Part shown: piece after piece, positions 1 to 53,514 of the stretch
Layout: each line of letters starts with the position of its first letter
Position numbering within the stretch: the stretch's first letter is position 1
NCBI GenBank assembly: GCA_963702895.1
Contig: OY969767.1
Location: forward strand, 224,001-288,000
Reading direction: 5' to 3'
Length of the DNA: 64,000 nucleotides
From: an uncultured Elusimicrobia bacterium
Lineage (GTDB): Bacteria; Elusimicrobiota; Elusimicrobia; 2-01-FULL-59-12
Program-made: the position numbers and the translations under genes
Notes under the pieces: model-generated
Told to the model about the DNA's origin: nothing
The model's database searches: none
What the model saw: only the letters and a program-made list of their open reading frames with translations

Positions 1-3000
1 AATCCCGTTCGTGCTCGCACATTTTCAAGACAGCATCATCTCAACTTTGTGTCCAGGATTAGCCGAAACCTCCTAGTTCTTGAAAGTTGGGGCGTGGTCG
101 AGCCAACCTCCGATCAACCCGGGACGTATAGGCTCACCCCGAAGGCGCGCCAGAAATACCGAGTGATCATGGCCTTGTTTATGCCTTTTCTAAAAGTCGG
201 TCGAGGCAACCCCAGCATAGCGATTCGCGAGGCCCGGGATCATGCGATCGCTGAGTTGAAGAGGATGGGATTCCAGGTGACCTTAACGCCGCCTGCCGTG
301 GTTCGGACTGCTCGAGCATCACGAATATCAGCCGCGGCACCCGAAGTGACGCCGGCGACGATCGAACGGCGCCGGGAGAGGGCGCCTCGAGATATCCGTC
401 CCTTTCGCAACCTGGGTTTGCGTATTCATAGATATCGGCTATTGCGGAACCTTACCCAGCGCCAACTGGCAGAGCTTGTCGGTCTCAATAAACAAGATAT
501 TGGCAACATGGAATACGGGCTATACGCTCCTCGCGATACCGTCTTAGCGGCACTCGCGTTGATTTTGATTGACGACCTACAGGAACGCGATCAATTTAAG
601 AATTGGGCAAAGAAACGGCGAGGCACGCCGTCACATGAGGATCGCAGATTCGCCCTTTGGGTGCGAATTCGCAAGGCCGGTCAATCCGGACATACGTTGC
701 AGAGAATGTCGGAGGGAGTCCTGAAGAATGAATTGGCAGAGCTTCCTTCCTCAACTCTTGACGCACCAGAATGCTTGATGGACATGATTGAAAAAAACCC
801 AGATATCCTCGCGGGCCTCCATCAGTCTCAGAGGGTCCGTGCATTTGTCGACTGGTATCACGCTGTGGATACCGCTTATCGCAATCGACAGAAGGGCGGC
901 CACAAGCCCCTGCATTCTCTGTTCATTTTTGACAAGGACCTCTCGCCAAGAATTCTGGATCGAAGGAAGAGTGAAGCGAAGCAAATGATGAACACTTTGT
1001 TCCAGGAGGTGCTTCTTGAGCGTCATCAGAGACTCTCACCTCCCGGGGTCAGTCATCCGGGACGTTGGGCGAGGCACTCTCTAACCGGCGCCGCCTTCCC
1101 GGGTACCGGGGCGCAATCCATTCAACAGAAAGCGGCCCAGGACTTTCAACAACGGCTCGACGCCGCCCTGGCACAGAGCCGGACGGTTTTGACTGAAGCG
1201 GAAACCCGGTGGGCATCCGCGCTGGCAGCCCTTGGGAATCGAGATTTCGTGCAAGCCATAACCGAAGCGGATCGGGCGCTCGCCCTGGCGAAAGCGGCCA
1301 TGCACGGGGGAGCGAATCCAGAAACCGGACAACCGCTTTGCGGACTTGAAACGATTCGCGTGACAGCCGAGCTCCGCCAGATGACCGATCTGGCTCAACA
1401 GATTGAAACCTTGGAAGAAAAAACGAAGACTTGGATCACAAGCCGGGCACAAACCCGCTCCGCTCTCTTTGACCTGTCAGAAATGGCTGCGCACCACGGA
1501 TCCATGACTCGTCTTGACCGCGCCCTATGGGATGCGGTTCGTTTCGCCATTATCGCGTCCGACATCATCGAACCAATGCGTCAAGAGCAGCTGGACGAAT
1601 TGCGCGGGCGGCATCCGGCCAACGGCATTGATGGTTTGATCCATTTGATCAACCTGGTCCTCCCGATGGCCGTCCCTGGGCTCCTTGAGCCCGCGATCAT
1701 GATGGTGACGGAGGGTTTGTTGAAATCCTCTCTTCTTGCCGACAAAATCCAAGGACCCACGCCAACGCTGCACATGCTTACCGGACATTCGCCCTCGTTC
1801 ACATCGCGAGCAACCAGAGTGGATCGGGCGCACGACAAACTGGTGGCAGCGGTCGTCTACTTGATCAAAGCAGACGTCGATGTGCGTCGCTTGTTCATTA
1901 ACATTTTCCCGGAACATCAGTCCTATCTCCCGACAAACACCGCCATCGGCTCTCACGACGATTCTCCGGAATCCGATCTTGTAGCCTATCGCCTAGGGAT
2001 TGCAAGTATGGGAGGAGATCCTAATCGACGGGAGCCCTACAGCAGCGTCGAGGTTGCTGCGTTGCAGCCTCCCGGCACCGACCGGCATATCCCCTATAAC
2101 ACAAGTTATCGGTTTGGGGAGGTGCTGCGTCGGATTAAAGCCCTCCACAATGGGGAGGGCCTGCCGCTCCCGCCGCCGGGTGGAGATGCGCAGGCCGTCA
2201 CGACTCAGGATCCCCTTGTTCCGCCTTCAGTCGGTCCGGCGACAGAAACACTTGCGTCTCCACCGCCGTACTCCCAGATCATGAAGGAGCGCGCATCCAC
2301 AATGTCCTCACTTCGCGATGAGGCGGTCACAGCCCTGCGCGAAGAGGCTTTAGCGGAAAATCATCTTGAACACGCGAAACAAGCTGTCGGCAGACGCGAT
2401 ATCCCAAGCGCAAAGGATGCCCTTAGCGCGGCATTAGCGAAAGTTCATGCAGCGCGGACAGCGGTGGAGACTATTCTCTTTCGCCCAGCGGATGAAGACC
2501 TTGCTCAAGAGCTGCGCAAGGATGGAGATCGTCTGGACAAGCTCATTGCTTATTGGCTTCCGGCAGATCAGGCCTTAACCGAAATGGTGGCAATTTATCC
2601 CCATCGCGCTTCTATTGACAATAATCCAGAGGCTGGAGTCCTTATCGAATCGGTGCTGACCAAGATGGCTTCAGGTGGAAAAATTGATCAGGAAGAGGTC
2701 GTCGGCCTGGTGGCGGTGCGGAAGGCAATTCGAATGTCTGCTGAGATTCCTGCTGCCTCCCCGGCAAAAACGCTGGCCGCTCCTACGCCAAAGGTTGATC
2801 GGAACGACAAGAAGAGGGCCTCTCAGAAAGGCGGTGCTCAACGGAGGGCCAAGAAGAAACTCATGCCCAGCCCCGTGCTCGATGCGGACGGAAGGCTGCA
2901 GGAAACGGATTTGGCAGTCGATGTGCCGTATATCCTTTTGCGGCGGCCCGCTGAAGGCTCGCAGTCCTATGGCTGGGAGATTTATCAGTCGCAAGGTCTT

Positions 3001-4947
3001 GATCCAGAGCGGTCCAAGCTCATCGCCACACTTCTTTCTCACGGGGAAGAAACCCACCTGCGGAGCGAACAGCAGCCTGGGCGGGAGACCAAGAAGGTCC
3101 CGAAATCCTATTCCTTTATACGGCTGGAAATACGCAGGCATTCAACTGAGGAAGAAACATTCTTCATCGGGCGCAGCCGTCGCCGTTCCGCGGCCATCAT
3201 TTTAGATCCCAGCCTCTTTAAGCCGGGCAAGGAAGTCAATCTCCAGGGAGCACTTTATCAAGCTGGCGGGTGGCTTGTGCACGGGCAGGATAGGACTGAG
3301 GAAGAACTGACCGCGCAAACCTGGATGGCGCTTTTGAGTCGAGTGCCCTTGGAGGCATTCCTCACAGCCTATGGACATCTGCCGCTGGCTCCGCGCGGCG
3401 AAGGAACTACTCCGCAGGCGACAACCCTGAGAGAAGTGTTCAACGCGCTCTTCAGAGACCAAATGGGCCTGTCGGAGCGCGCTCTTCGGGACCGAGCGGA
3501 TGCGCACCATCCTGAACACGCTGATCTGACTTTCTTGATGGAGGGGATCGTGAGTGCGGTGTTAGATGAACTCTACCGTCAGTTTCCAGAGCTCTTCAAA
3601 ACAAAGCGCCGCTATTGGATGCCAGTCGGTGTCCCTCCTGGTGCGCCAGAAGCGCTCACTCCTGAGCGCCAGATTCTCCATCAGATTCTCCAGCAGATGC
3701 TCGACAGCATGAGAGAAGAGGCTAACGAGGCGGTCGCTGACGATCCTACGCTCGACGCGCTGGATTACCAAGACTTGGTGCGTCGGATGCAAGTTGCACT
3801 CGATAAGCCCGATGCCCTTCAGCGCTTAAGAAATCATATACAAAGGGTGCTCACAATGGATCAATCCCGAGCATCTCGACGGCTCGCTCAACACAAACAG
3901 TTTCAGTTCATCCGATGGTGGGTTGTGCCGTCCGCGCCATCAAAAACCGGTTTCTTGGACTTTGACACCCCTCAGCCCGACCCCGGGGAGAGCCCCTGGT
4001 GGATTGCGCCGCTCGCGCCATCAGAAACCGGTTCCTTGGACTTTGACGCCCCTCAGCCCGACCCCAGGGAGAGCCTCATCAGAGAGCTGGAAAGCCTTCA
4101 TCTCCCACAACTCGGTTTGCCCAGCCAGTTGCTGCATGCGTATGTTGCCATGTCCATCCAGCAACTCGAGAATGGAAGCACCATAAAAGTGCTGGCCTCT
4201 TTGCGCTCGATTAGAGCTCAAACCCCCGTCGAGAGCAAAATTAGCAACGTGCTGATCCAAGAACCGATAAATAGTACAGCTGCCAACAACTTAACACCTC
4301 TCGAAGATAGCATCGTTTATTTTCTGTTTCTGTTGACCCTTGGCGGGGAAACCTTCCGGAAAGCTGTCGCCATGTTTTTCGCATCCGCTCAACTGCCGCC
4401 TGAGATCCTGCAGCTTCTCATCCCTAAAGATTGTCCCGAATTAAACGAATGGAATGAGAAGAGACGCTCTGGTAGAACAAAAACGCTCACTGATGTAGAA
4501 CTTGTGATCGCACGTAAAGCCGTCGGGAGTGACTTTGCATTCAGTACCCCAGCTCTCACTGACTCGGAAAAGGAAGCGCTTCAATATCTGCGTCTTCGCG
4601 AGATCGAAATCCTCCCAACACACCGAATACCTGGCGTGGTTCAATTCCCGGCAGTAAGGAAAGCGCCCCGTATCGTCCGGACGGTCCCTCCTCGTTCTAC
4701 TACGCTCAGTATGAATGGAATCTCGGAACTGGTTTCAATTGGCCAGCAATATCCCCTCGTGAGCTTGGCCGGGCTTGGTTTGTGGTGGGCTGCGATGTTT
4801 CACGCCACCGTCCCCATGATTCTCTTCTGTGGAGCGGCGGTCTCCATCGCCATCTACCGGGCCGACAGCCTCGGTCTATCTCATCCTTCCACACCCGCAA
4901 CTGCCAGCCACTCGCGTTCCAGGCGCCATTTCATGGCCGCCGCCTGA
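1..4947 (+). CDS. C-terminal part (>1648 aa) of a giant orphan protein, 5'-truncated by the window edge; winged-HTH-like and XRE-type HTH segments, repeated helical blocks, C-terminal hydrophobic pair, ends ...RRHFMAAA
   Basis: Frame is open from base 1 (no stop in 1-48). XRE-like HTH (LGLRIHRYRLLRNLTQRQLAELVGLNKQDIGNMEYG), wHTH-like ISRNLLVLESWGVVE...YRLT, two hydrophobic stretches before the stop. Confidence 0.8.
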   Translation, partial: NPVRARTFSRQHHLNFVSRISRNLLVLESWGVVEPTSDQPGTYRLTPKARQKYRVIMALFMPFLKVGRGNPSIAIREARDHAIAELKRMGFQVTLTPPAVVRTARASRISAAAPEVTPATIERRRERAPRDIRPFRNLGLRIHRYRLLRNLTQRQLAELVGLNKQDIGNMEYGLYAPRDTVLAALALILIDDLQERDQFKNWAKKRRGTPSHEDRRFALWVRIRKAGQSGHTLQRMSEGVLKNELAELPSSTLDAPECLMDMIEKNPDILAGLHQSQRVRAFVDWYHAVDTAYRNRQKGGHKPLHSLFIFDKDLSPRILDRRKSEAKQMMNTLFQEVLLERHQRLSPPGVSHPGRWARHSLTGAAFPGTGAQSIQQKAAQDFQQRLDAALAQSRTVLTEAETRWASALAALGNRDFVQAITEADRALALAKAAMHGGANPETGQPLCGLETIRVTAELRQMTDLAQQIETLEEKTKTWITSRAQTRSALFDLSEMAAHHGSMTRLDRALWDAVRFAIIASDIIEPMRQEQLDELRGRHPANGIDGLIHLINLVLPMAVPGLLEPAIMMVTEGLLKSSLLADKIQGPTPTLHMLTGHSPSFTSRATRVDRAHDKLVAAVVYLIKADVDVRRLFINIFPEHQSYLPTNTAIGSHDDSPESDLVAYRLGIASMGGDPNRREPYSSVEVAALQPPGTDRHIPYNTSYRFGEVLRRIKALHNGEGLPLPPPGGDAQAVTTQDPLVPPSVGPATETLASPPPYSQIMKERASTMSSLRDEAVTALREEALAENHLEHAKQAVGRRDIPSAKDALSAALAKVHAARTAVETILFRPADEDLAQELRKDGDRLDKLIAYWLPADQALTEMVAIYPHRASIDNNPEAGVLIESVLTKMASGGKIDQEEVVGLVAVRKAIRMSAEIPAASPAKTLAAPTPKVDRNDKKRASQKGGAQRRAKKKLMPSPVLDADGRLQETDLAVDVPYILLRRPAEGSQSYGWEIYQSQGLDPERSKLIATLLSHGEETHLRSEQQPGRETKKVPKSYSFIRLEIRRHSTEEETFFIGRSRRRSAAIILDPSLFKPGKEVNLQGALYQAGGWLVHGQDRTEEELTAQTWMALLSRVPLEAFLTAYGHLPLAPRGEGTTPQATTLREVFNALFRDQMGLSERALRDRADAHHPEHADLTFLMEGIVSAVLDELYRQFPELFKTKRRYWMPVGVPPGAPEALTPERQILHQILQQMLDSMREEANEAVADDPTLDALDYQDLVRRMQVALDKPDALQRLRNHIQRVLTMDQSRASRRLAQHKQFQFIRWWVVPSAPSKTGFLDFDTPQPDPGESPWWIAPLAPSETGSLDFDAPQPDPRESLIRELESLHLPQLGLPSQLLHAYVAMSIQQLENGSTIKVLASLRSIRAQTPVESKISNVLIQEPINSTAANNLTPLEDSIVYFLFLLTLGGETFRKAVAMFFASAQLPPEILQLLIPKDCPELNEWNEKRRSGRTKTLTDVELVIARKAVGSDFAFSTPALTDSEKEALQYLRLREIEILPTHRIPGVVQFPAVRKAPRIVRTVPPRSTTLSMNGISELVSIGQQYPLVSLAGLGLWWAAMFHATVPMILFCGAAVSIAIYRADSLGLSHPSTPATASHSRSRRHFMAAA
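3916..4077 (+). repeat. Two-copy 81-bp (27-aa) in-frame tandem duplication inside the giant ORF
   Basis: 3916-3996 vs 3997-4077 are 72/81 identical: WWVVPSAPSKTGFLDFDTPQPDPGESP / WWIAPLAPSETGSLDFDAPQPDPRESL. Confidence 0.97.
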
Positions 4948-5151: not shown

Positions 5152-5355
5152 TCAGGCCGCCTGGCAATGGTGCGAATGCCGCCAGTACGCGAACAGGACG
5201 TCGCGGCTCACGCGCTGGCCGTTTTGCTTGAAGTACTGCAGCATCTCGTTGGCGCTGTCGAGGTCTTCGGCTTGAATGAAGTGCATGAGCTGCGCGATCG
5301 CGGCAGCTCGGGTGCTGGCTGCCAGGTCTCTCCTCTTGTCCATTCTGTTGAACAT
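5152..5355 (-). CDS. Small hypothetical protein (67 aa) ending in -CQAA
   Basis: Strong SD (GGAGGTG) 4 nt before ATG; amphipathic helical sequence; fills the gap between the giant ORF and the intron. Confidence 0.6.
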   Translation of the reverse strand: MFNRMDKRRDLAASTRAAAIAQLMHFIQAEDLDSANEMLQYFKQNGQRVSRDVLFAYWRHSHHCQAA

Positions 5356-5532
5356 GGCTCACCTCCAGGTAGTCCTTGTGCTGATGATCCGTATGACATG
5401 TACCGTCAAGGACCTCTGCGCCTAAACCATACGAAAGGCACGTTACAGCGACGTTTCGCGCTTGTTACAGGTCTGTAAATCTTTTTAAGCCGGTGGATAG
5501 GACAGAAAGAGTCGTCTTAGCCGGGAATCTGC

Positions 5533-7414
5533 GTGCGCCAGGACAAACTGTACTGAGCCCAGTGGATGAAAGAGCCACAGCCTAAGGCCTAGCCAGCCAA
5601 GGCATAGCTCGTCTTGCATCGACGGCCGTGAGGCCGGAGGTGAAGCGTAGACAAGTGACAACGCAGGCCGCAAGGTGATAAACCGATCGAGCCCCGAAAA
5701 GAACGGTCATGTTGTGGAAGCCGAGGCGGTGCAGTTAGCCGAAGGCAACAAGGTTCTCGCCAAGACGGCAGGGATAGAGCCTTTCCACCGGGGTCTTACG
5801 AGGGCGGCATGTGTTGAAGGGACAGTGACGGGACCTGGGAGGCCTGCTGGGAGTCCGCTGAGGCGGACGCCGCCAACCCGAGGGACAACCAAAGGGAAAC
5901 GGACCGGCAGGAGTCAGAGAACCCCATAGTACCTAAGAAGCGGGTAACGACCGTGGAGGGAAGGGGGCGACAGGAGGAGGAAGCGATGGAGGGACAGGGA
6001 GCTGATTCACAGAAGTCAGAGACTTCCTTAACGAAACTCCGGCGCGTAGCGGAGCAAGCGAAGCAGAATCAGAAGATGCGCTGGATATCGGTCAATCACC
6101 TGATGGACGTCGACCTTCTGCGGGACAGTTGGAAGCGTCTTGACAAGGGTGGAGCCAGCGGGGTGGATGGCCAGACGGCGCAGGCGTACGGTCAAGACTT
6201 AGAAAAGCGGCTGGAAGAGCTTCACGAGCAACTGAAGGCAGGGACGTACCGGGCACCGCCGGTAAGGCGGGTGTGGATACCCAAATCGGACGGCAGGCAA
6301 CGGCCGATCGGGATACCGACGTTGGAAGACAAGATAGTCCAGCGGGCGGTCGCCACGATCATGGAAGCCGTCATGGAGCCGTTGTTTCTGGAGAGTTCGT
6401 ACGGGTACCGGCCTGGGCGGAACGCCCATCAGGCGTTGTGGTCCATACAACGGACGCTGATGTATCAGCCGATCCACTGGGTGCTGGAGATCGACCTGGA
6501 GTCGTTCTTTGACACCTTGGATCACGGATGGCTGAGACGGATGGTGGACGTACGGATGGGCGATGGGGTGATCCAGCGGCTGATTGGGAAATGGCTGAAC
6601 GCGGGAGTGATGGAGGAAGGAAGGCTGACGCGAACGGACCAAGGGAGCCCGCAAGGCGGGGTGATTTCGCCGATGTTGGCGAACATCTACCTGCATTACG
6701 CGATAGACCTGTGGTTTGTGAAGGTCATCCAACCGAAGCTCAAGGGAGAATCGTGCGCATGGCGATATGCGGACGATATCCTGATGGCGTTCGAGCATGA
6801 AGCGGAGGCGCGCGAGGTCCAAAGGCAGCTTGGGGAGCGTTTGGCGAAGTTTGGCCTAAAGCTCAACCCAAGCAAGACACGTCTGATCCGGTTTGAGAGA
6901 CCCCGGGACACAAACGGGGACGACCCGCCGGATCGGAGCGCGTTCGACTTTCTGGGGTTCACGCACTACTGGGCGAGGAGTCGACGAGGGATGTGGGTGG
7001 TGAAGCGGAAGACCGCTGGGAAGCGATTACGGCGGGCGATGAGCGCGGTGACGCAGTGGTGCAAAGCGCACCGGCACTGGAAGCTCCGCGAACAGCACCA
7101 GCACCTGAATGCGATTCTTCGAGGGCATTATCAGTATTACGGGATGACCTGGAATTGGGTTGGATTGAGCGTCTTCCACTTACATGTGGTCAGAACGTGG
7201 CAGAGATGGTTGAGCCGCCGGAGTCAGACGGCTTACATTCGCTGGGATCGGATGGAACAGATCCTGGAGAACTATCCCTTGCTACCTCCACGAATTATTC
7301 ATCCTGATCCATGGCGCATGGCACGTGAGTCCTTTTCTTGAAGAGCGTCGTGCGGGAAATCCGCATGCGGCGTTCCGTGAGGGGGTGGGAGGGCGACCTC
7401 CCGCTCTACTCGAT
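5533..7414 (+). mobile_element. Group II intron (ribozyme plus intron-encoded RT/maturase)
   Basis: 5' end GTGCG at 5533; domain V GAGCGTCGTGCGGGAAATCCGCATGCGGCGTTC at 7343-7375 (AGC triad, GAAA loop); domain VI ending ...CTACTCGAT at 7414; EBS1 loop GCAGTT (5731-5736) complementary to the 5'-exon end CTGC; boundaries confirmed by the empty site at 13779/13780. Confidence 0.95.
5986..7341 (+). CDS. ltrA: Group II intron reverse transcriptase/maturase, no C-terminal HNH endonuclease
   Basis: ASGVDG, RRVWIPK..G..RPIGIPTLEDKIVQ, SYGYRPGR, GSPQGGVISPMLANIYLH, YADD, FDFLGF and thumb/X domain; SD AGGAGG upstream of ATG 5986. Confidence 0.96.
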   Translation: MEGQGADSQKSETSLTKLRRVAEQAKQNQKMRWISVNHLMDVDLLRDSWKRLDKGGASGVDGQTAQAYGQDLEKRLEELHEQLKAGTYRAPPVRRVWIPKSDGRQRPIGIPTLEDKIVQRAVATIMEAVMEPLFLESSYGYRPGRNAHQALWSIQRTLMYQPIHWVLEIDLESFFDTLDHGWLRRMVDVRMGDGVIQRLIGKWLNAGVMEEGRLTRTDQGSPQGGVISPMLANIYLHYAIDLWFVKVIQPKLKGESCAWRYADDILMAFEHEAEAREVQRQLGERLAKFGLKLNPSKTRLIRFERPRDTNGDDPPDRSAFDFLGFTHYWARSRRGMWVVKRKTAGKRLRRAMSAVTQWCKAHRHWKLREQHQHLNAILRGHYQYYGMTWNWVGLSVFHLHVVRTWQRWLSRRSQTAYIRWDRMEQILENYPLLPPRIIHPDPWRMARESFS

Positions 7415-7680
7415 AGTTGTCGTCATCCCGGTGAAAACCGGGATCCAGTCCATCGTCGTTGAACTGGACCCCGGCTTCCGCCGGGGTGACGGCACAAAAA
7501 AGCGCATCGAGTTCAGACGATGAGGCAAAATGAACCGAAGTTTTCCGGTTAGTGGTTAACGGGGCAAGGCCCGGCGGAGGACGGTTTTTAGCGGATCGGG
7601 TCCAGGGAGGACATCGAACGGAGGTGCGCCGGCTTCTGTTCGAGCATACAACACAATCTCTTCCCATTCACTTTTCTGAG

Positions 7681-9145: not shown

Positions 9146-9294
9146 CCGGGAAGCTTTTGTTGACGTCACCCCGGCGAAAGCCGGGGTCTATCATGTTTCG
9201 ACGTAAATGATGGATCCCGGCGTCCGCCGGGATGACGGCACATAAAAGTCCACTGACCTCAGATGACAAAACCGGTCCGACAGAAGATTCCCGG
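9146..9294 (+). mobile_element. Divergent copy of the MITE-like family (149 bp) containing a double-hairpin REP-like core (9165-9236)
   Basis: Starts CCGGGAAGCT, ends GAAGATTCCCGG followed by CTAG; same core and tail order as the 5521-7548 element. Confidence 0.75.
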
Positions 9295-9900
9295 CTAGTC
9301 CAGAATCCCGCCCAGGTCCTTCCTTAATTGTCGGGCGCTCGTGAAGTGGTGCGCACGTATCCCGATCGACCTTGCCGCGGTGATATGTTCCTTCACATCA
9401 TCGATGAAGACGGCCTTGGCCGGATCGACCTTGGCTTTGCGAAGGGTCAGGAGATAGATCTCAAGCTCCGGCTTCCGGTGTCCGACGGCGTAGGAAGCGA
9501 TCGGGTGGTCAAACCAGTCCATAAAGGCATGGCTCTTACACACATGTTTCCAGTGCATGGGGTTGACGTTCGAGATCATGGCCAGCCGGTAGGACTTTCG
9601 CAAGCGCTTCAGGATCTGGACGGATTCGGGTATCTCTTCAAAAATGTCATTCCACAGCTTCATGAAGGGGCCAAAGTGGAGGCCCTTCAGTTTGAGTTCT
9701 TTCGAGAGGCCCTGAAAGAAATCTTGTTCACTGATCGTGCCGCGCTCAAAGCGGTCCCAGAGCGGGGTGGTTTTAAAGAAGTTGCGGATCTCGTCGATGG
9801 TGTGCGGCGAATGTTTCTTGAGGCCACGGACGACTTTCATGAAGTCAAAGTCGAGCAGGACGCGGCCCAAGTCAAAGATGATCAGTTCAGGACGATTCAT
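9295..9900 (-). CDS. HAD-superfamily phosphatase (YihX-like)
   Basis: Motif I IIFDLGRVL, motif II ISN, RKPELEIY, motif IV FIDD. Confidence 0.9.
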   Translation of the reverse strand: MNRPELIIFDLGRVLLDFDFMKVVRGLKKHSPHTIDEIRNFFKTTPLWDRFERGTISEQDFFQGLSKELKLKGLHFGPFMKLWNDIFEEIPESVQILKRLRKSYRLAMISNVNPMHWKHVCKSHAFMDWFDHPIASYAVGHRKPELEIYLLTLRKAKVDPAKAVFIDDVKEHITAARSIGIRAHHFTSARQLRKDLGGILD

Positions 9901-11296: not shown

Positions 11297-12151
11297 ATGA
11301 GGAACCTAATCCGACTACGTTTTATTTCGTCATCCCGGCGAAAGCCGGGATCCATCATGTTCTTTGCATCGATGATAGACCCCGGCTTCCGCCGGGGTGA
11401 CGTCTGCGTTGTGATGCTATGCCTGGTCGCGGCGCTCCTGACGGGATGCGCGACGGTGCCCTACACGCAGCGTCGTCAGTTTAATCTCCTCTCACAAGCG
11501 GAAGAAGACCAGATGGGCGCCCAGGCCTACGCGGAGGTGAAAGCCAAGAGTCCTTTGTCCAAAGATGCCGGCCTCAAGGCGCTTGTCAGGCGCGTGGGAG
11601 AGCGCATCGCGGCCGTCGCGGACAGGCCTAAGTTTCAATGGGAGTTCGTCGTCATTGACGAGCCCAAGACCTTAAACGCCTTTTGCCTGCCGGGAGGGCG
11701 CGTGGCTGTCTATACGGGAATACTCCCGGTGACCCAAGACGAAACGGGTCTTGCGGTCGTGATGTCGCATGAGGTGGCCCACGCCTTGGCGCGGCACGGA
11801 GCAGAACGCATGAGCCAGCAGATGGCCGTGGGACTGAGCGAACAACTGGCGGTCAACGCGGGACTGATTAAGAGTCCAACAGGGATGCAAATCTTTGAGA
11901 TGGCCTATGGCATCGGGGTCGGCCTTCCCCATAACCGCAGCCAGGAAAAAGAAGCTGACAGGATCGGACTTATTCTCATGGCGAAGGCGGGATACGACCC
12001 TCGTGAAGCCATCCCCTTTTGGCAGCGCATGAAAGCGGCGGCTGGAGGACAAAAGCCTCCCGAATTTCTCTCCACACACCCCTCGGACGACACACGCATC
12101 CAAAAAATACGCGAAGCTCTTCCTGAAGCCCTCACCTACTACAAACCGTAA
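11297..12151 (+). CDS. M48-family Zn metallopeptidase lipoprotein (LoiP/Oma1-like)
   Basis: Lipobox LLTGC, NAFCLPGG, HEVAH, EKEAD, FLSTHP; start could be 11297 or a downstream ATG. Confidence 0.92.
   Translation: MRNLIRLRFISSSRRKPGSIMFFASMIDPGFRRGDVCVVMLCLVAALLTGCATVPYTQRRQFNLLSQAEEDQMGAQAYAEVKAKSPLSKDAGLKALVRRVGERIAAVADRPKFQWEFVVIDEPKTLNAFCLPGGRVAVYTGILPVTQDETGLAVVMSHEVAHALARHGAERMSQQMAVGLSEQLAVNAGLIKSPTGMQIFEMAYGIGVGLPHNRSQEKEADRIGLILMAKAGYDPREAIPFWQRMKAAAGGQKPPEFLSTHPSDDTRIQKIREALPEALTYYKP
11329..11401. repeat. Double-hairpin REP-like element (GTCATCCCGG...CCGGGGTGAC) in the 5' end of the M48 gene
   Basis: Two GC-rich hairpins arranged as an inverted pair; same family as 7422-7490. Confidence 0.9.
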
Positions 12152-12293
12152 CGGAGTATCGGAGTAACGGGGTATCGGAGTAACGGAGTAACGGGGTATC
12201 GGAGTAACGGAGCAACGGCGCGCTGGTGTTTTGGCATAACAACTCATCATGGAGCTTTGACTCCGACACTCCGATACGCCGATACTCCGATAC
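12148..12293. repeat. Inverted arrays of 8-mers: GTA(A/T)CGG(A/G) x9 (12148-12219) and (T/G)CCGA(T/C)AC x4 (12262-12293)
   Basis: Direct reading; lies between convergent genes. Confidence 0.92.
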
Positions 12294-13361: not shown

Positions 13362-13493
13362 GGTTGTTGTGTGTCTCCTAGTTTGTTGAATTGCCGATCA
13401 AAGTGCGATATCCAAGGTAGGCCAAAAAACTGCAGCGAACAGGGAATCAAGCCTTCGAAGCGGGTACGACAAAGTCATTCTACTATATATTGA

Positions 13494-13817
13494 GCGTGAT
13501 TAAGTGATTAGGTGATTAAGTGATTTGGGTAAGGCGTGCTGATAGCAGTAAGGGTTCTGTTGGGACTGGAGAGCATAACACAAGGATGTTCCCCTAACCA
13601 GAAATCTTCGGTTCATTATGCCTCATCGTCTGAACTCGATGCACTTTATTGTGCCGTCACCCCGGCGAAAGCCGGCCCTCCAGACGCCGGGCGGGCCGGG
13701 TCGCCGGACTTGTGGAGACCCGGGGTCCAGTTCAACGACGATGGACTGGATCCCGGTTTTCACCGGGATGACGACTACTGCAGATTCCCGGCTAATCACC
13801 TAATCACTTAATCACGC
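13494..13817. repeat. Inverted 8-mer arrays (GTGATTA(A/G)); perfect 25-bp IR at 13494-13518 / 13793-13817 bracketing the MITE copy
   Basis: GCGTGATTAAGTGATTAGGTGATTA is the exact reverse complement of TAATCACCTAATCACTTAATCACGC. Confidence 0.92.
13598..13791 (-). mobile_element. Intron-free copy of the MITE-like element (146 bp plus 48-bp nested insertion), flanked by CTAA (TTAG on the minus strand) direct repeats
   Basis: CTAA at 13594-13597 and 13792-13795; ~95% identical to the intron-bearing copy; contains the empty intron site CCGGGAATCTGC|AGTAG. Confidence 0.9.
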
Positions 13818-13833
13818 CCAGAAATCACGCCCA

Positions 13834-15279: not shown

Positions 15280-15298
15280 AATTGATTAACTCTATGAC

Positions 15299-15360
15299 GT
15301 CACCCCGGCGAAAGCCGGGGTCCATCATGATGGATTCCGGCTTACGACCGCCGGAATGAC
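15299..15360. repeat. Double-hairpin REP-like element between NUDIX and gatB
   Basis: GTCACCCCGGCGAAAGCCGGGGTCCATCATGATGGATTCCGG...CCGGAATGAC. Confidence 0.9.
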
Positions 15361-17320: not shown

Positions 17321-17404
17321 GTCACCCCGGCGGATTGTTAGCCGGGGTCTATCATGAGCATTAAAAGAGATGATGGATCCCGGCTTGCGGCATGCCGGGA
17401 TGAC
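17321..17404. repeat. Double-hairpin REP-like element between gatC and gatA
   Basis: GTCACCCCGG...CCGGGGTCTATCA ... TGATGGATCCCGG...CCGGGATGAC. Confidence 0.9.
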
Positions 17405-17441
17405 GGCAAGAGACCCAGGATACGTGAACGGAATATTCAAG

Positions 17442-21852: not shown

Positions 21853-23065
21853 CTATTCGTAGAAATGGATCGCTTGCAGGATGGCCTGCCAATCCTGCGC
21901 CATTTGTCGCATCAGTCGTGAATCTCCCTCTAAATTGAACAACCACCGCGCTCGGGGACTCCACACCCAGAGGTCCTGGCCGCGAACAAAGCGACCTTTC
22001 ACCGTATTCTCATAAACCAGCTGATAGGCCGGAAGACCGTGGAAAGGTTCTTCCGATTCCAGGACGATCGTAGAAACCCTTCACTTTAAGGGACTTGCGC
22101 GCTTCTTCCTTTTCTTGCGGTGTCATTTCCCGAGAGGAAGCTGCCAAGGTATCAACCACCGCTGAAAACGCCAACTGCATTTTATCACGGGCAATGGTAG
22201 CACCAAGTTGTCGGTCGTCTGCGACACCGATCAGCCAATCTTCAGGGATCTCGATTTTGGCGCCCCCGGTCTGATGCACCCAGAGGCCGCCGTGAGAGGG
22301 GGCCTTCAATTTGCCGGAGCCTTCCCGTGAGAGCAAGTGGATGGTGCTGAGCCAATTTTGGTAATCCTGCACGATCCAGGGGAAGCTGTCGCGAGCGGCT
22401 TTGAGCGTCAGAACATAAAAGCGGTTATCTTTGAAGAAGTAGACCGACTGGTGCTGCGTCGTGCCTTCCGTCCCCTCCAGGAGCCATGTGACTTCGTAGG
22501 CGTTTTGCCCGGCCAGCGTCCGGGTCGTGCCGGCCAGGAGGCGTGAGCCTGCGGAGCGAACTGCAAGGTCACGGGTCGCAAAGTTTTTGAGGATGTCGAC
22601 GGATGTGTCCGAAGACAGGCGCGAGGGATCCACAGGTTCCGAGATCTGGCAGACGATCGAGGCCTCTGTTCCTTCCTGGGTTTTGCGGGTGAGAAGCGGC
22701 CCAAAAGGAAAGGAGGAGCCCATCTCCCAGTTTGCTGGGATTCCGAAGCTGAGCTTGGCGTCGCTGAAGAACAGGCGCGGCGGTGTGTCGACGGCAGCGC
22801 AGAGCGAGCAGAGCAAAGTGAGCAGCGAGCAAGCCAAGAACAAGGAATGTCCTAGCCGGAAATAATGTCTTGTATTATGCTTATCAGTGTAGGTGTTGGA
22901 AAAATATTTCTCCGTCATCCCGGCATGTCGTAAGCCGGGATCCATCATGGAATTTACATCAATGATAGACCCCGGCTGACGTCCGCCGGGGTGACGGCTT
23001 AGCTGAGCTATTTCATTCAGTTGTTTGCTCGGCTCTGTTCGCTGCTCTCTGTTCGCTCTCGTCAT
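21853..23065 (-). pseudogene. Secreted protein with two tandem PsbP/DcrB-like domains; frameshift near 22072 (pseudogene or assembly error)
   Basis: ORF 22010-23065 continues in the +1 frame as TIVLESEEPFHGLPAYQLVY...QDWQAILQAIHFYE* (stop 21853), mirroring domain 1 (LAGQNAYEVTW...QDYQNWLSTIHLL). Confidence 0.75.
22856..22998 (-). mobile_element. 143-bp MITE-like unit with REP-like core (22914-22995), inserted in frame in the N-terminus of the upstream gene
   Basis: Flanked by CTAG (22852-22855) and TTAG (22999-23002); tail ends TTCCGG like other copies; 143+4 = 147 bp = 49 codons; bracketed by inverted 7-mer arrays (22796-22830 / 23027-23060). Confidence 0.7.
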
Positions 23066-35916: not shown

Positions 35917-36011
35917 GATGGTCGTTCTCCTTTAAAAGTTTTGAAATGGAGTCACTATTATATACGAGAACACGCCCGTCCGGTATAATGCCTAAAGGGG
36001 CTCAATTCGTC

Positions 36012-36078
36012 GTCACCCCGGCGGAAGCCGGGGTCTATCATTTTCTGCATGATAGATTCCGGCTTTCGCCGGAATGAC
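36012..36078. repeat. Double-hairpin REP-like element
   Basis: GTCACCCCGGCGGAAGCCGGGGTCTATCA...TGATAGATTCCGGCTTTCGCCGGAATGAC. Confidence 0.9.
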
Positions 36079-36097
36079 GTTTGGGTTTGTTCCTGAA

Positions 36098-52471: not shown

Positions 52472-53514
52472 GGTCTGTGTCGGAGTATCGGTGTGACGGA
52501 GTAACGGGGTCACAGCCCAAAGACGTATCGGCGCATCGGAGTATCGGTGTCATGATGTCGTGGCTGTTTCGCCGATACCCCGATACCCCGATACCCCGTT
52601 ACTGCCTCATAGCGCTCTTCGCCCTTCTCCCTTCGAACGCGGCGCACGCTTCGGGCGAAGCGGACGCCTTCGCGCTGCCGGGAGTGGGGGCTCGCCAGGG
52701 AGGCATGGGCGGTGCCTTTGTTGGTCTTTCGGATGACATTGAGGCGATCTATTACAACCCGGCGGGGCTTGGCAATCTCATTCAGTCAGGAGTCACGGGC
52801 ATGTATCAGCCGGCGTCGCTGGGCACGACACGAAGCTTTCTGGGATTCAGCCAGCGGTGGGCCCATCCGCGCTTGCCGGGCAGTGTGGGCTTCGGATGGC
52901 TTCGCATGGGGTCGGCGGATATCGAGCTCACCGACACAGATGAGAATGTCTTAGGGACAGATCAGTTGTCGAATGACCTCTTTTTGTTGAGCGCTGGGGT
53001 GCGGCCCTTCCTGCATTGGTCGTTTGGCCTTTCCTTGAAGTATTTCCGCTTCGCGTTTAACGATTTTAAGGAGTCCGGCTTTGGTGTGGACCTTGGAACG
53101 CACGCACAGTATCGTCCTTTTCGTTTCGGCGTAGTCCTGAGCGATCTGGGAGGGACGAAACTTTCCGGAGACTCGATCAGTCCTTCTGGAGGAACGGTCG
53201 GTGATGTCGTCCCGCCACGTCTAAAGACAGGAGTGGGGGCTGTGTTCCCTCAGCCCTTCAACTGGCCGCTCACGATGGTAATGGATCTGGATACGCACCT
53301 CAAGCTTCGCGGTAGCCAGGACACGAAAACGTCCCTGGGTATGGAAGTATGGACGTACAACGATCACATCGCCGCCCGTACGGGCTACCAGGAATCCGGC
53401 GGCCCCACCCTGGGCTTTGGCGCGCGCTGGGGGCAGTTCCAGATCGATTATTCGTTCCTGTTCAGCCTCAACCTCAAGGATGAACACCGCATGGGCCTCA
53501 CCTACCGCTATTAA
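52468..53514 (+). CDS. PorV/PorQ-family outer-membrane beta-barrel
   Basis: GVGARQGGMGGAFVGLSDD..AIYYNPAGL, GFGVDLG, IDYSF, HRMGLTYRY. Confidence 0.85.
   Translation: MRSVSEYRCDGVTGSQPKDVSAHRSIGVMMSWLFRRYPDTPIPRYCLIALFALLPSNAAHASGEADAFALPGVGARQGGMGGAFVGLSDDIEAIYYNPAGLGNLIQSGVTGMYQPASLGTTRSFLGFSQRWAHPRLPGSVGFGWLRMGSADIELTDTDENVLGTDQLSNDLFLLSAGVRPFLHWSFGLSLKYFRFAFNDFKESGFGVDLGTHAQYRPFRFGVVLSDLGGTKLSGDSISPSGGTVGDVVPPRLKTGVGAVFPQPFNWPLTMVMDLDTHLKLRGSQDTKTSLGMEVWTYNDHIAARTGYQESGGPTLGFGARWGQFQIDYSFLFSLNLKDEHRMGLTYRY
52477..52602. repeat. Inverted 8-mer arrays (GTATCGG(A/T/C) vs CCGATAC) in the 5' end of the PorV-like gene
   Basis: Units at 52477-52508 and 52525-52548, inverted at 52571-52602; same 8-mer family as 12148-12293. 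Confidence 0.88.

Follow-up and report, generated by a model that had tools for sequence, protein, structure and literature searches.

The homing site adopted by a presumably active lineage of endonuclease-less group II introns of ORF class E is probably the TIR shared by an IS1380 transposon subgroup and the MITEs that descend from this subgroup. The window, a stretch of 64,000 nucleotides (C1:224001-288000 of genome G000, a single contig of 2.72 Mb), contains one copy of this intron, type A, whose boundary lies 12 bases within the TIR of a 146-bp MITE (Table 1). The same TIR position was found at 10/10 5' junctions (three in G000, one in G343 and six in G040, with one of the ten at 11 bases), the genomes being kin and the ten sites not independent origins of the targeting habit. 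All 11 of the 3' junctions enter the MITE interior. A preliminary description of the window had proposed that a multicopy non-autonomous repeat serves as the regular target; the 5' junctions in the three genomes agree with this, and the copies do not sit mostly in unrelated sites. That a class E intron homes into TIRs of IS1380 type on MITEs is, in our view, real and, judged from sequence, well supported.

The Rfam models for D1-D4-6 and DV/DVI match 5569-5803 (131.7 bits) and 7341-7414 (43.9 bits), respectively, and the RT/maturase ORF, for which an alternative GTG start at 5953 would give 462 aa, scores 355.9 bits against the NCBIfam cut-off of 300. In this ORF Pfam identifies RVT_1 alone and no HNH domain. 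The element has the GUGYG start, AY end, DI-DIV with DV/DVI, and RT ORF with YADD in DIV that define group II introns. Removing the intron by script leaves a 146-bp element between two TTAG copies, with no duplication at the junction. The preliminary description had recognized a group II intron at 5533-7414, a precise junction free of duplication and an RT lacking an endonuclease domain, and these three points are borne out. There was no promoter-like match near the type A intron. The neighbouring 67-aa ORF of unknown kind at 5152-5355 (minus strand) is divergent from the intron, and the 1632-aa ORF at 49-4947 (plus strand) contains an internal 81-bp duplication and has an N-terminal helix-turn-helix as its sole hit.

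Table 1. Coordinates of the intron, its host MITE and related features (positions in the window unless stated otherwise).
Feature	Position	Strand	Remarks
Left TTAG target-site duplication, 4 bp	5517..5520	+	Exon -16 to -13; identical to 7549-7552
Outer 12 bp of MITE left TIR	5521..5532	+	Contains putative IBS2 (about 5520-5523) and IBS1 (5527-5532)
Group II intron, type A copy	5533..7414	+	1882 nt, GTGCG...GAT ends
Candidate EBS2 CGGU	5704..5707	+	Pairs with exon -10 to -13; short, inferred
EBS1 GCAGUU	5731..5736	+	Pairs 5/6 with exon -1 to -6; B copies GAAGAU, 6/6
EBS3 U	5796..5796	+	Pairs with A at +1; in B copies G opposite C
Intron-encoded RT/maturase	5986..7341	+	451 aa from ATG; class E ORF with intact YADD and without an endonuclease domain
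Domains V and VI of type A intron	7341..7414	+	DV with 5-nt GAAAU loop
Remaining MITE	7415..7548	+	Inner 5 bp of left TIR 7415-7419; right TIR 7532-7548
CGTC-type REP hairpin cluster in MITE	about 7418-7495	+
Right TTAG duplication	7549..7552	+
Empty sibling MITE	13594..13795	-	194 bp, not counting the duplication; TIR and junction as in the occupied copy, with an internal insert of 48 bp
IS110 copies in TIR	G000 C1:645892, 672757, 417909, 2232120, 2428742		Outside the window

The RT phylogeny suggested in the preliminary description places the intron in class E. In a tree of 32 rows, without labelled class F or confirmed class C references and without L017, L184 and L037 (left out because the script detected no ORF containing the two motifs), the intron RT and the RT of the R. 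etli Mim1 plasmid fall in a 100/100 clade with 46% identity, and this clade is sister to a 419-aa class D group. The class E label itself comes from the supplement to PMC4244168, which lists a 431-aa RT of that strain and was matched by strain and length, not by accession. The intron lacks an endonuclease domain, has a 5-nt DV loop and carries alpha' at the tip of the DId3 stem-loop, all features of class E/IIE, the latter two being also common to IIF and the alpha' assignment having been made by eye; PMC3753933 gives the 5-nt DV loop and terminal-loop alpha' as IIE/IIF traits. From these features we consider the type A copy to be an intact endonuclease-less group II intron of ORF class E. Membership of class IIC was rejected: a 5'-exon stem-loop is present in 0/10 cases, an EBS2 loop, which class IIC lacks, is present, and EBS1 pairing reaches 6 bp in the B copies as opposed to the 3-4 nt of class IIC. 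Close relatives of the intron RT are labelled Elusimicrobiota in their source records.

The repeat that hosts the intron is short, non-coding and multicopy, and has TIRs and a target-site duplication, as MITEs do. The TIR is approximately 17 bp long, CCNRRAAWYTKC-RGTTG, with a YTAR duplication. An end-pattern search of G000 returned 137 matches, some of them REP-internal, compared to 25-27 in shuffles. When ends found with a TIR profile were paired at 110-320 bp, identical 4-bp flanks occurred in 34/47 short pairs, as opposed to a mean of 10.4 and a maximum of 19 in 2000 random pairings; the profile was trained on 23 pairs picked for matching flanks, which introduces some circularity into this count. 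One complete IS (L294) is independent of the training, as are four pairs whose flanks are identical but not YTAR. Inverted flanks were found in 7/47 short pairs, and an integron attC reading of the repeat, which calls for inverted RYYYAAC/GTTRRRY cores and for no direct duplication, was rejected on this ratio of direct to inverted copies. The host repeat is more than a REP; it is a MITE bounded by TIRs and flanked by a 4-bp duplication, and REP-type hairpins are its interchangeable cargo. The empty site described at 13598-13791 does differ from the rejoined site by 7 substitutions, but the 48-bp insert, which makes it 194 bp long as opposed to 146 bp, had gone unmentioned. Empty copies of the same length lie outside the window, one at C1:222543 with 4 substitutions and three more with 6-8, all without gaps. 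Similar MITE ends were present in 13/20 selected related genomes and abundant in three.

Several other repeats were noted in passing. The window contains inverted pairs of tandem repeats of 7-8 bases at 12136-12242, 13491-13518, 13793-13820 and 52473-52603, and one such pair brackets the empty MITE at 13594-13795. Intergenic CGTC-type REP double hairpins occur at 9146-9298, 11325-11404, 15295-15346, 17321-17406, 22912-22977 and 36008-36080, with a clear TIR only at the one ending at 9298. Minimal elements of 28-38 bp, consisting of two TIRs head to head, were seen at L161 and L164 (G361, G376) and at L116 and L188 (G040).

The origin of the MITE is best seen at L045 in G343, where both ends of an IS1380 element of the same genome, over the first 538 and the last 85 bases, match the host element at 74-91%, and the intron occupies the end matching the IS1380 left end. 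The transposase group of that IS1380 was found at 14 loci in 301 genomes, with the TIR pattern at an end in 13/14, and one of its members, L294, is a complete IS1380 with CTAG on both sides. By sequence, the MITE type derives from this IS1380 subgroup, an autonomous partner with the same ends that is present in other genomes. In G000 the MITE interiors show a weak likeness to the ends of the matching IS1380 elements, so that there the MITE is tied to IS1380 by the TIR and duplication that the two have in common. The matching subgroup transposase was not found in G000, and the genome's own IS1380, at 24% identity, has different ends and duplications of 5-6 bp. The landing pad is thus probably not being renewed in G000 at present, which makes the earlier term "renewable" doubtful there.

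Other partner transposases were considered and rejected. IS701/DDE_5 was not found in G000 or in 10 MITE-bearing genomes, and the IS4-like, IS256-like and own IS1380 elements of G000 have ends that differ from those of the MITE. In viral contigs the TIR patterns gave 36 and 11 matches, with no paired transposase in the eight loci with ORFs that were inspected and no TIR-intron junction. The partner search also returned a weak Y1 transposase match. A second IS1380 in G000 is present as seven identical copies (C1:508304 and six more) with 5-6 bp duplications, and its left end carries a CGTC-type REP hairpin. A second YTAR-duplicating family is represented by L238 (G361:C123), which belongs to the IS1634 family, is flanked by TTAA at either end and has a TIR starting with CCCA.

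G000 encodes three RTs, all of them in copies of this intron: A, B1 and B2. The B copies are 94.5% identical to A and 1 nt apart from each other, and both lie 12 nt inside the TIRs of other MITE subfamilies, the host of B1 having no recognisable far end. With all three copies at the same offset and about 145 TIR-like ends among 5.4 million strand positions, a chance insertion at the type A site is excluded. At L045, where the RT is 80% identical, the intron again lies 12 nt inside the TIR, here of a 650-bp element flanked by CTAG at either end. Of the six 5' ends in G040, five are 12 nt away from a YTAR-like flank and the sixth 11 nt, and each of its six 3' ends enters a MITE interior; the intron interior is unassembled in this genome, and its EBSs are not readable. 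G369 has a single 3' fragment in the same MITE setting.

Could a single old insertion into a TIR have spread to further sites when the intron-bearing MITE or IS transposed? In favour of this, the duplication is preserved in the intron-MITE composite, as are the outer 12 bp of each TIR. However, the host MITE sequence and TIR variant differ at every site, including B1/B2 and the G040 flanks, and no member of the matching transposase group was found in G000. B1 and B2 are nearly identical but have different flanks, and hence moved as introns and not as a composite; such copies are an indirect sign of retromobility. We regard this explanation as very unlikely, and composite transposition is unlikely as a main route; movement of the composite by the MITE's transposase in G000, as raised in the preliminary description, is doubtful.

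Searches of 401 and 371 genomes, with two candidates per genome scored, revealed no further member of this close clade. Relatives of at most 59% RT identity sit elsewhere, and none of the five distant relatives with a located 5' end (L016, L017, L060, L067 and L082; L018, whose 5' end was not located, is left out of this tally) is in this TIR, L060 having TTAA-CC at the same offset but being otherwise unlike it. Saturation of cognate sites was rejected, as G040 has 80 empty end matches versus 4 in the control. Contigs of four DNA runs (placed at 82%) bridged neither junction of the type A locus and contained no empty allele of it, and are uninformative on this locus. Both B copies (L001:4118, C1:463116; L002:4297, C1:1961796) lie directly downstream of a same-strand gene, which is an AAA ATPase in one case and in the other belongs to what we take from its motifs to be an AbiE-like pair. 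Read-through from these genes could transcribe the B copies.

The target itself is the TIR, read by EBS1, EBS3 and probably EBS2. In type A, EBS1 GCAGUU and EBS3 U face ATCTGC followed by A; the loop at 5731-5736 had been located correctly, but it pairs with five of six bases and not with CTGC alone. The same EBS1 pairs 6/6 with the TIR variant AACTGC followed by A, of which there are 8 empty copies. In type B, EBS1 GAAGAU and EBS3 G pair 6/6 with ATCTTC followed by C, again with 8 empty copies. EBS1 and EBS3 thus vary in step with the TIR variants, and the EBS3 position also fits +1 in L045, L016, L017 and L181. The EBS2 loop position agrees with the class E references L181 and L183, which pair over 7 bp each. 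This loop is CGGU opposite -10 to -13 in A and B, with only 3 bases paired in B2, and CAGGU opposite -9 to -13 in L045, where it pairs over 5 bp and a C-to-A change opposite an exon T represents one compensatory change.

RNA-DNA pairing alone does not single out TIRs. When at least 5/6 EBS1 pairs, EBS3 and at least 4/5 EBS2 pairs are required for type A, 21 of 1654 sites are TIRs; requiring Y-16/T-15 as well gives 20 of 212, and 3 of the 1504 sites that pair as well for type B are TIRs. At L045 EBS1 pairs only 3/6. The lack of TIR specificity and the short pairing at L045 suggest that a protein read-out of the duplicated flank may matter. Taken further, specificity could come mainly from the protein, reading the transposon-end junction (YTAR and CC), or from access provided by the transposase or an end structure, with EBS1 only setting the cut position as in class C. 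The exact placement at L045, variation at -2 and -3 among the G040 sites, T-15 in 10/10 5' exons and the more than 1000 non-TIR sites left by pairing would all fit this, as would the requirement of RmInt2 for C-16 and T-15 (PMC4615759). Against it, EBS1 and EBS3 follow the target in A versus B, the conserved flank bases are also simply conserved TIR and duplication bases, purifying selection against insertions in genes could account for the missing enrichment, and in G040 the distance to the flank is 11 nt at one of the sites. We judge it unlikely. We give a small chance to a related proposal, that the lineage recognises the junction of duplicated YTAR and CC tip mainly by protein and tolerates 3 bp of EBS1 pairing. 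If so, junction recognition by protein would be a fourth specificity beside homing sites, terminators and attC, the intron and an RNA-guided IS110 would be competitors for one 16-bp site, and the GTGCGCC-marked MITE variants found in four genomes would be what imprecise intron loss leaves behind. In our preferred reading, with the TIR found mainly by RNA-DNA pairing, the remainder of the specificity likely comes from protein read-out of the flank together with selection against insertions in genes.

The preliminary description had instead combined short IBS1 pairing with a DNA hairpin in the 3' exon. Strong folding 3' of the insertion is confirmed for the type A copy (z -5.6 over 138 nt and -2.5 over 60 nt), and the 3' exons of L045 and L131 reach z of about -2. 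The three folding exons, however, carry different hairpins at different offsets, a REP hairpin lies behind 1/11 3' junctions, and for 8/11 3' exons the folding does not exceed that of shuffles (z -1.3 to +1.6). The 5' exons are also without a hairpin in 10/10 cases (z -1.0 to +1.2). The B and G040 sites already largely rule out a role for the 3' hairpin, which we consider highly improbable.

Class D and E introns move by fork-primed steps, as is generally known and set out in the papers cited here. By analogy, the intron would be transcribed together with its flanks and spliced with its own maturase, and the RNP would reverse-splice into single-stranded DNA at the replication fork. TIR bases 7-12 would be paired by EBS1, base 13 by EBS3, and the tip of the TIR plus the last duplicated base by EBS2, while the protein probably adds a read-out of Y-16/T-15 in the duplicated flank, as in RmInt2. 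The nascent strand would then prime cDNA. Two TIRs per element would make a target available in either orientation, and intergenic sites would be cheap for the host, with selection also removing off-target insertions. If fork direction is taken from GC skew, two of the three copies, A and B1, are oriented with the fork and B2 is opposed to it; the skew is weak on the second replichore, and three copies are a small sample for a lagging-strand bias. As to the use of both inverted repeats, the MITE ends of G000 have no clear left or right.

The closest precedent is the rhizobial intron RmInt2 in the inverted repeats of ISRm17, and the present case is not a new mechanism. RmInt2 (class D, 2014) homes into both ISRm17 inverted repeats with relaxed pairing and needs C-16 and T-15 (PMC4615759; also PMC5894124), so that the novelty attributed earlier to this target class was overstated. 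Both are endonuclease-less bacterial introns whose homing site is a transposon inverted repeat with two targets per element, and both have relaxed EBS2 pairing with a 2-3 nt linker, a U-A EBS3, and a pyrimidine at -16 with T-15. In both, all copies are at one inverted-repeat position. In contrast to RmInt2, the present intron is of class E, its targets are mostly non-autonomous IS1380 derivatives of 50-650 bp whose transposase group was not found in G000 rather than an intact IS, and two EBS variants match two TIR variants in one genome. RmInt1 in ISRm2011-2 (PMC5894124) is likewise an En-minus intron with a multicopy mobile element as target and an expected lagging-strand bias, but it is of class D with strict pairing, and its target lies within an IS630-family element and is not described as a TIR.

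The IIE/ORF class E introns (Nagy et al. 2013, PMC3753933; Toro and Nisa-Martinez 2014, PMC4244168) share the RT clade, the lack of an En domain, the 5-nt DV loop, alpha' in a terminal loop, and EBS1 and EBS2; the accessible parts of these two papers show no TIR or MITE targeting. A 2015 review (PMC4424553) lists three intron specificities: homing sites, terminators and attC. The IIC introns of terminators and attC (PMC4424553; PMC7923331) resemble ours in being En-minus with many non-identical intergenic targets, but belong to another RT clade; here the upstream hairpin is absent and the flanks are direct duplications, not attC inverted cores. In the literature covered, mostly outside subscription journals and in part-texts, we found no description of introns in MITE or IS1380 ends, and the parts of PMC11602168 and PMC6053426 seen contain none.

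The TIR is also used by a second type of element. One kind of IS110 is inserted in this TIR at five places in G000, each time at the CT core that lies two bases ahead of the intron site, and in two of these cases the target is exactly that of type A; the remaining eight IS110 copies belong to two further kinds and are in MITE internal hairpins as judged by eye. IS110 in REPs (Tobes and Pareja 2006, PMC1525189) is similarly a mobile element targeting dispersed repeats, but is a DNA recombinase, not a retroelement, and targets REP palindromes, not a TIR. Table 1 of that paper places 2/9 P. putida group II introns near REPs. One short site used by two unrelated RNA-guided elements would be a compact case of mobile-element competition.

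Inverted-repeat homing is not unique to RmInt2 but has probably arisen separately in class E, and homing into TIRs probably persists on MITE remnants after transposase loss. How much of the specificity a protein contributes by reading the transposon-end junction may be the more novel part. The two EBS variants that occur naturally, together with the many TIR variants, provide a test set for the shares of RNA and protein in recognition, a division that bears on retargeting endonuclease-less introns.

Some empty MITE ends are followed by GTGCG(CC), the first bases of the intron, and are frequently one base shorter than their siblings. Such ends were seen at C1:179882 in G000, at L108, L116 and L188-L191 in G040, at L106 and L115 in G403, and at L109, L117 and L194 in G369. 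They could be scars of imprecise intron loss via GCC microhomology, or an unrelated hairpin module, G376 having GTCCGCC.
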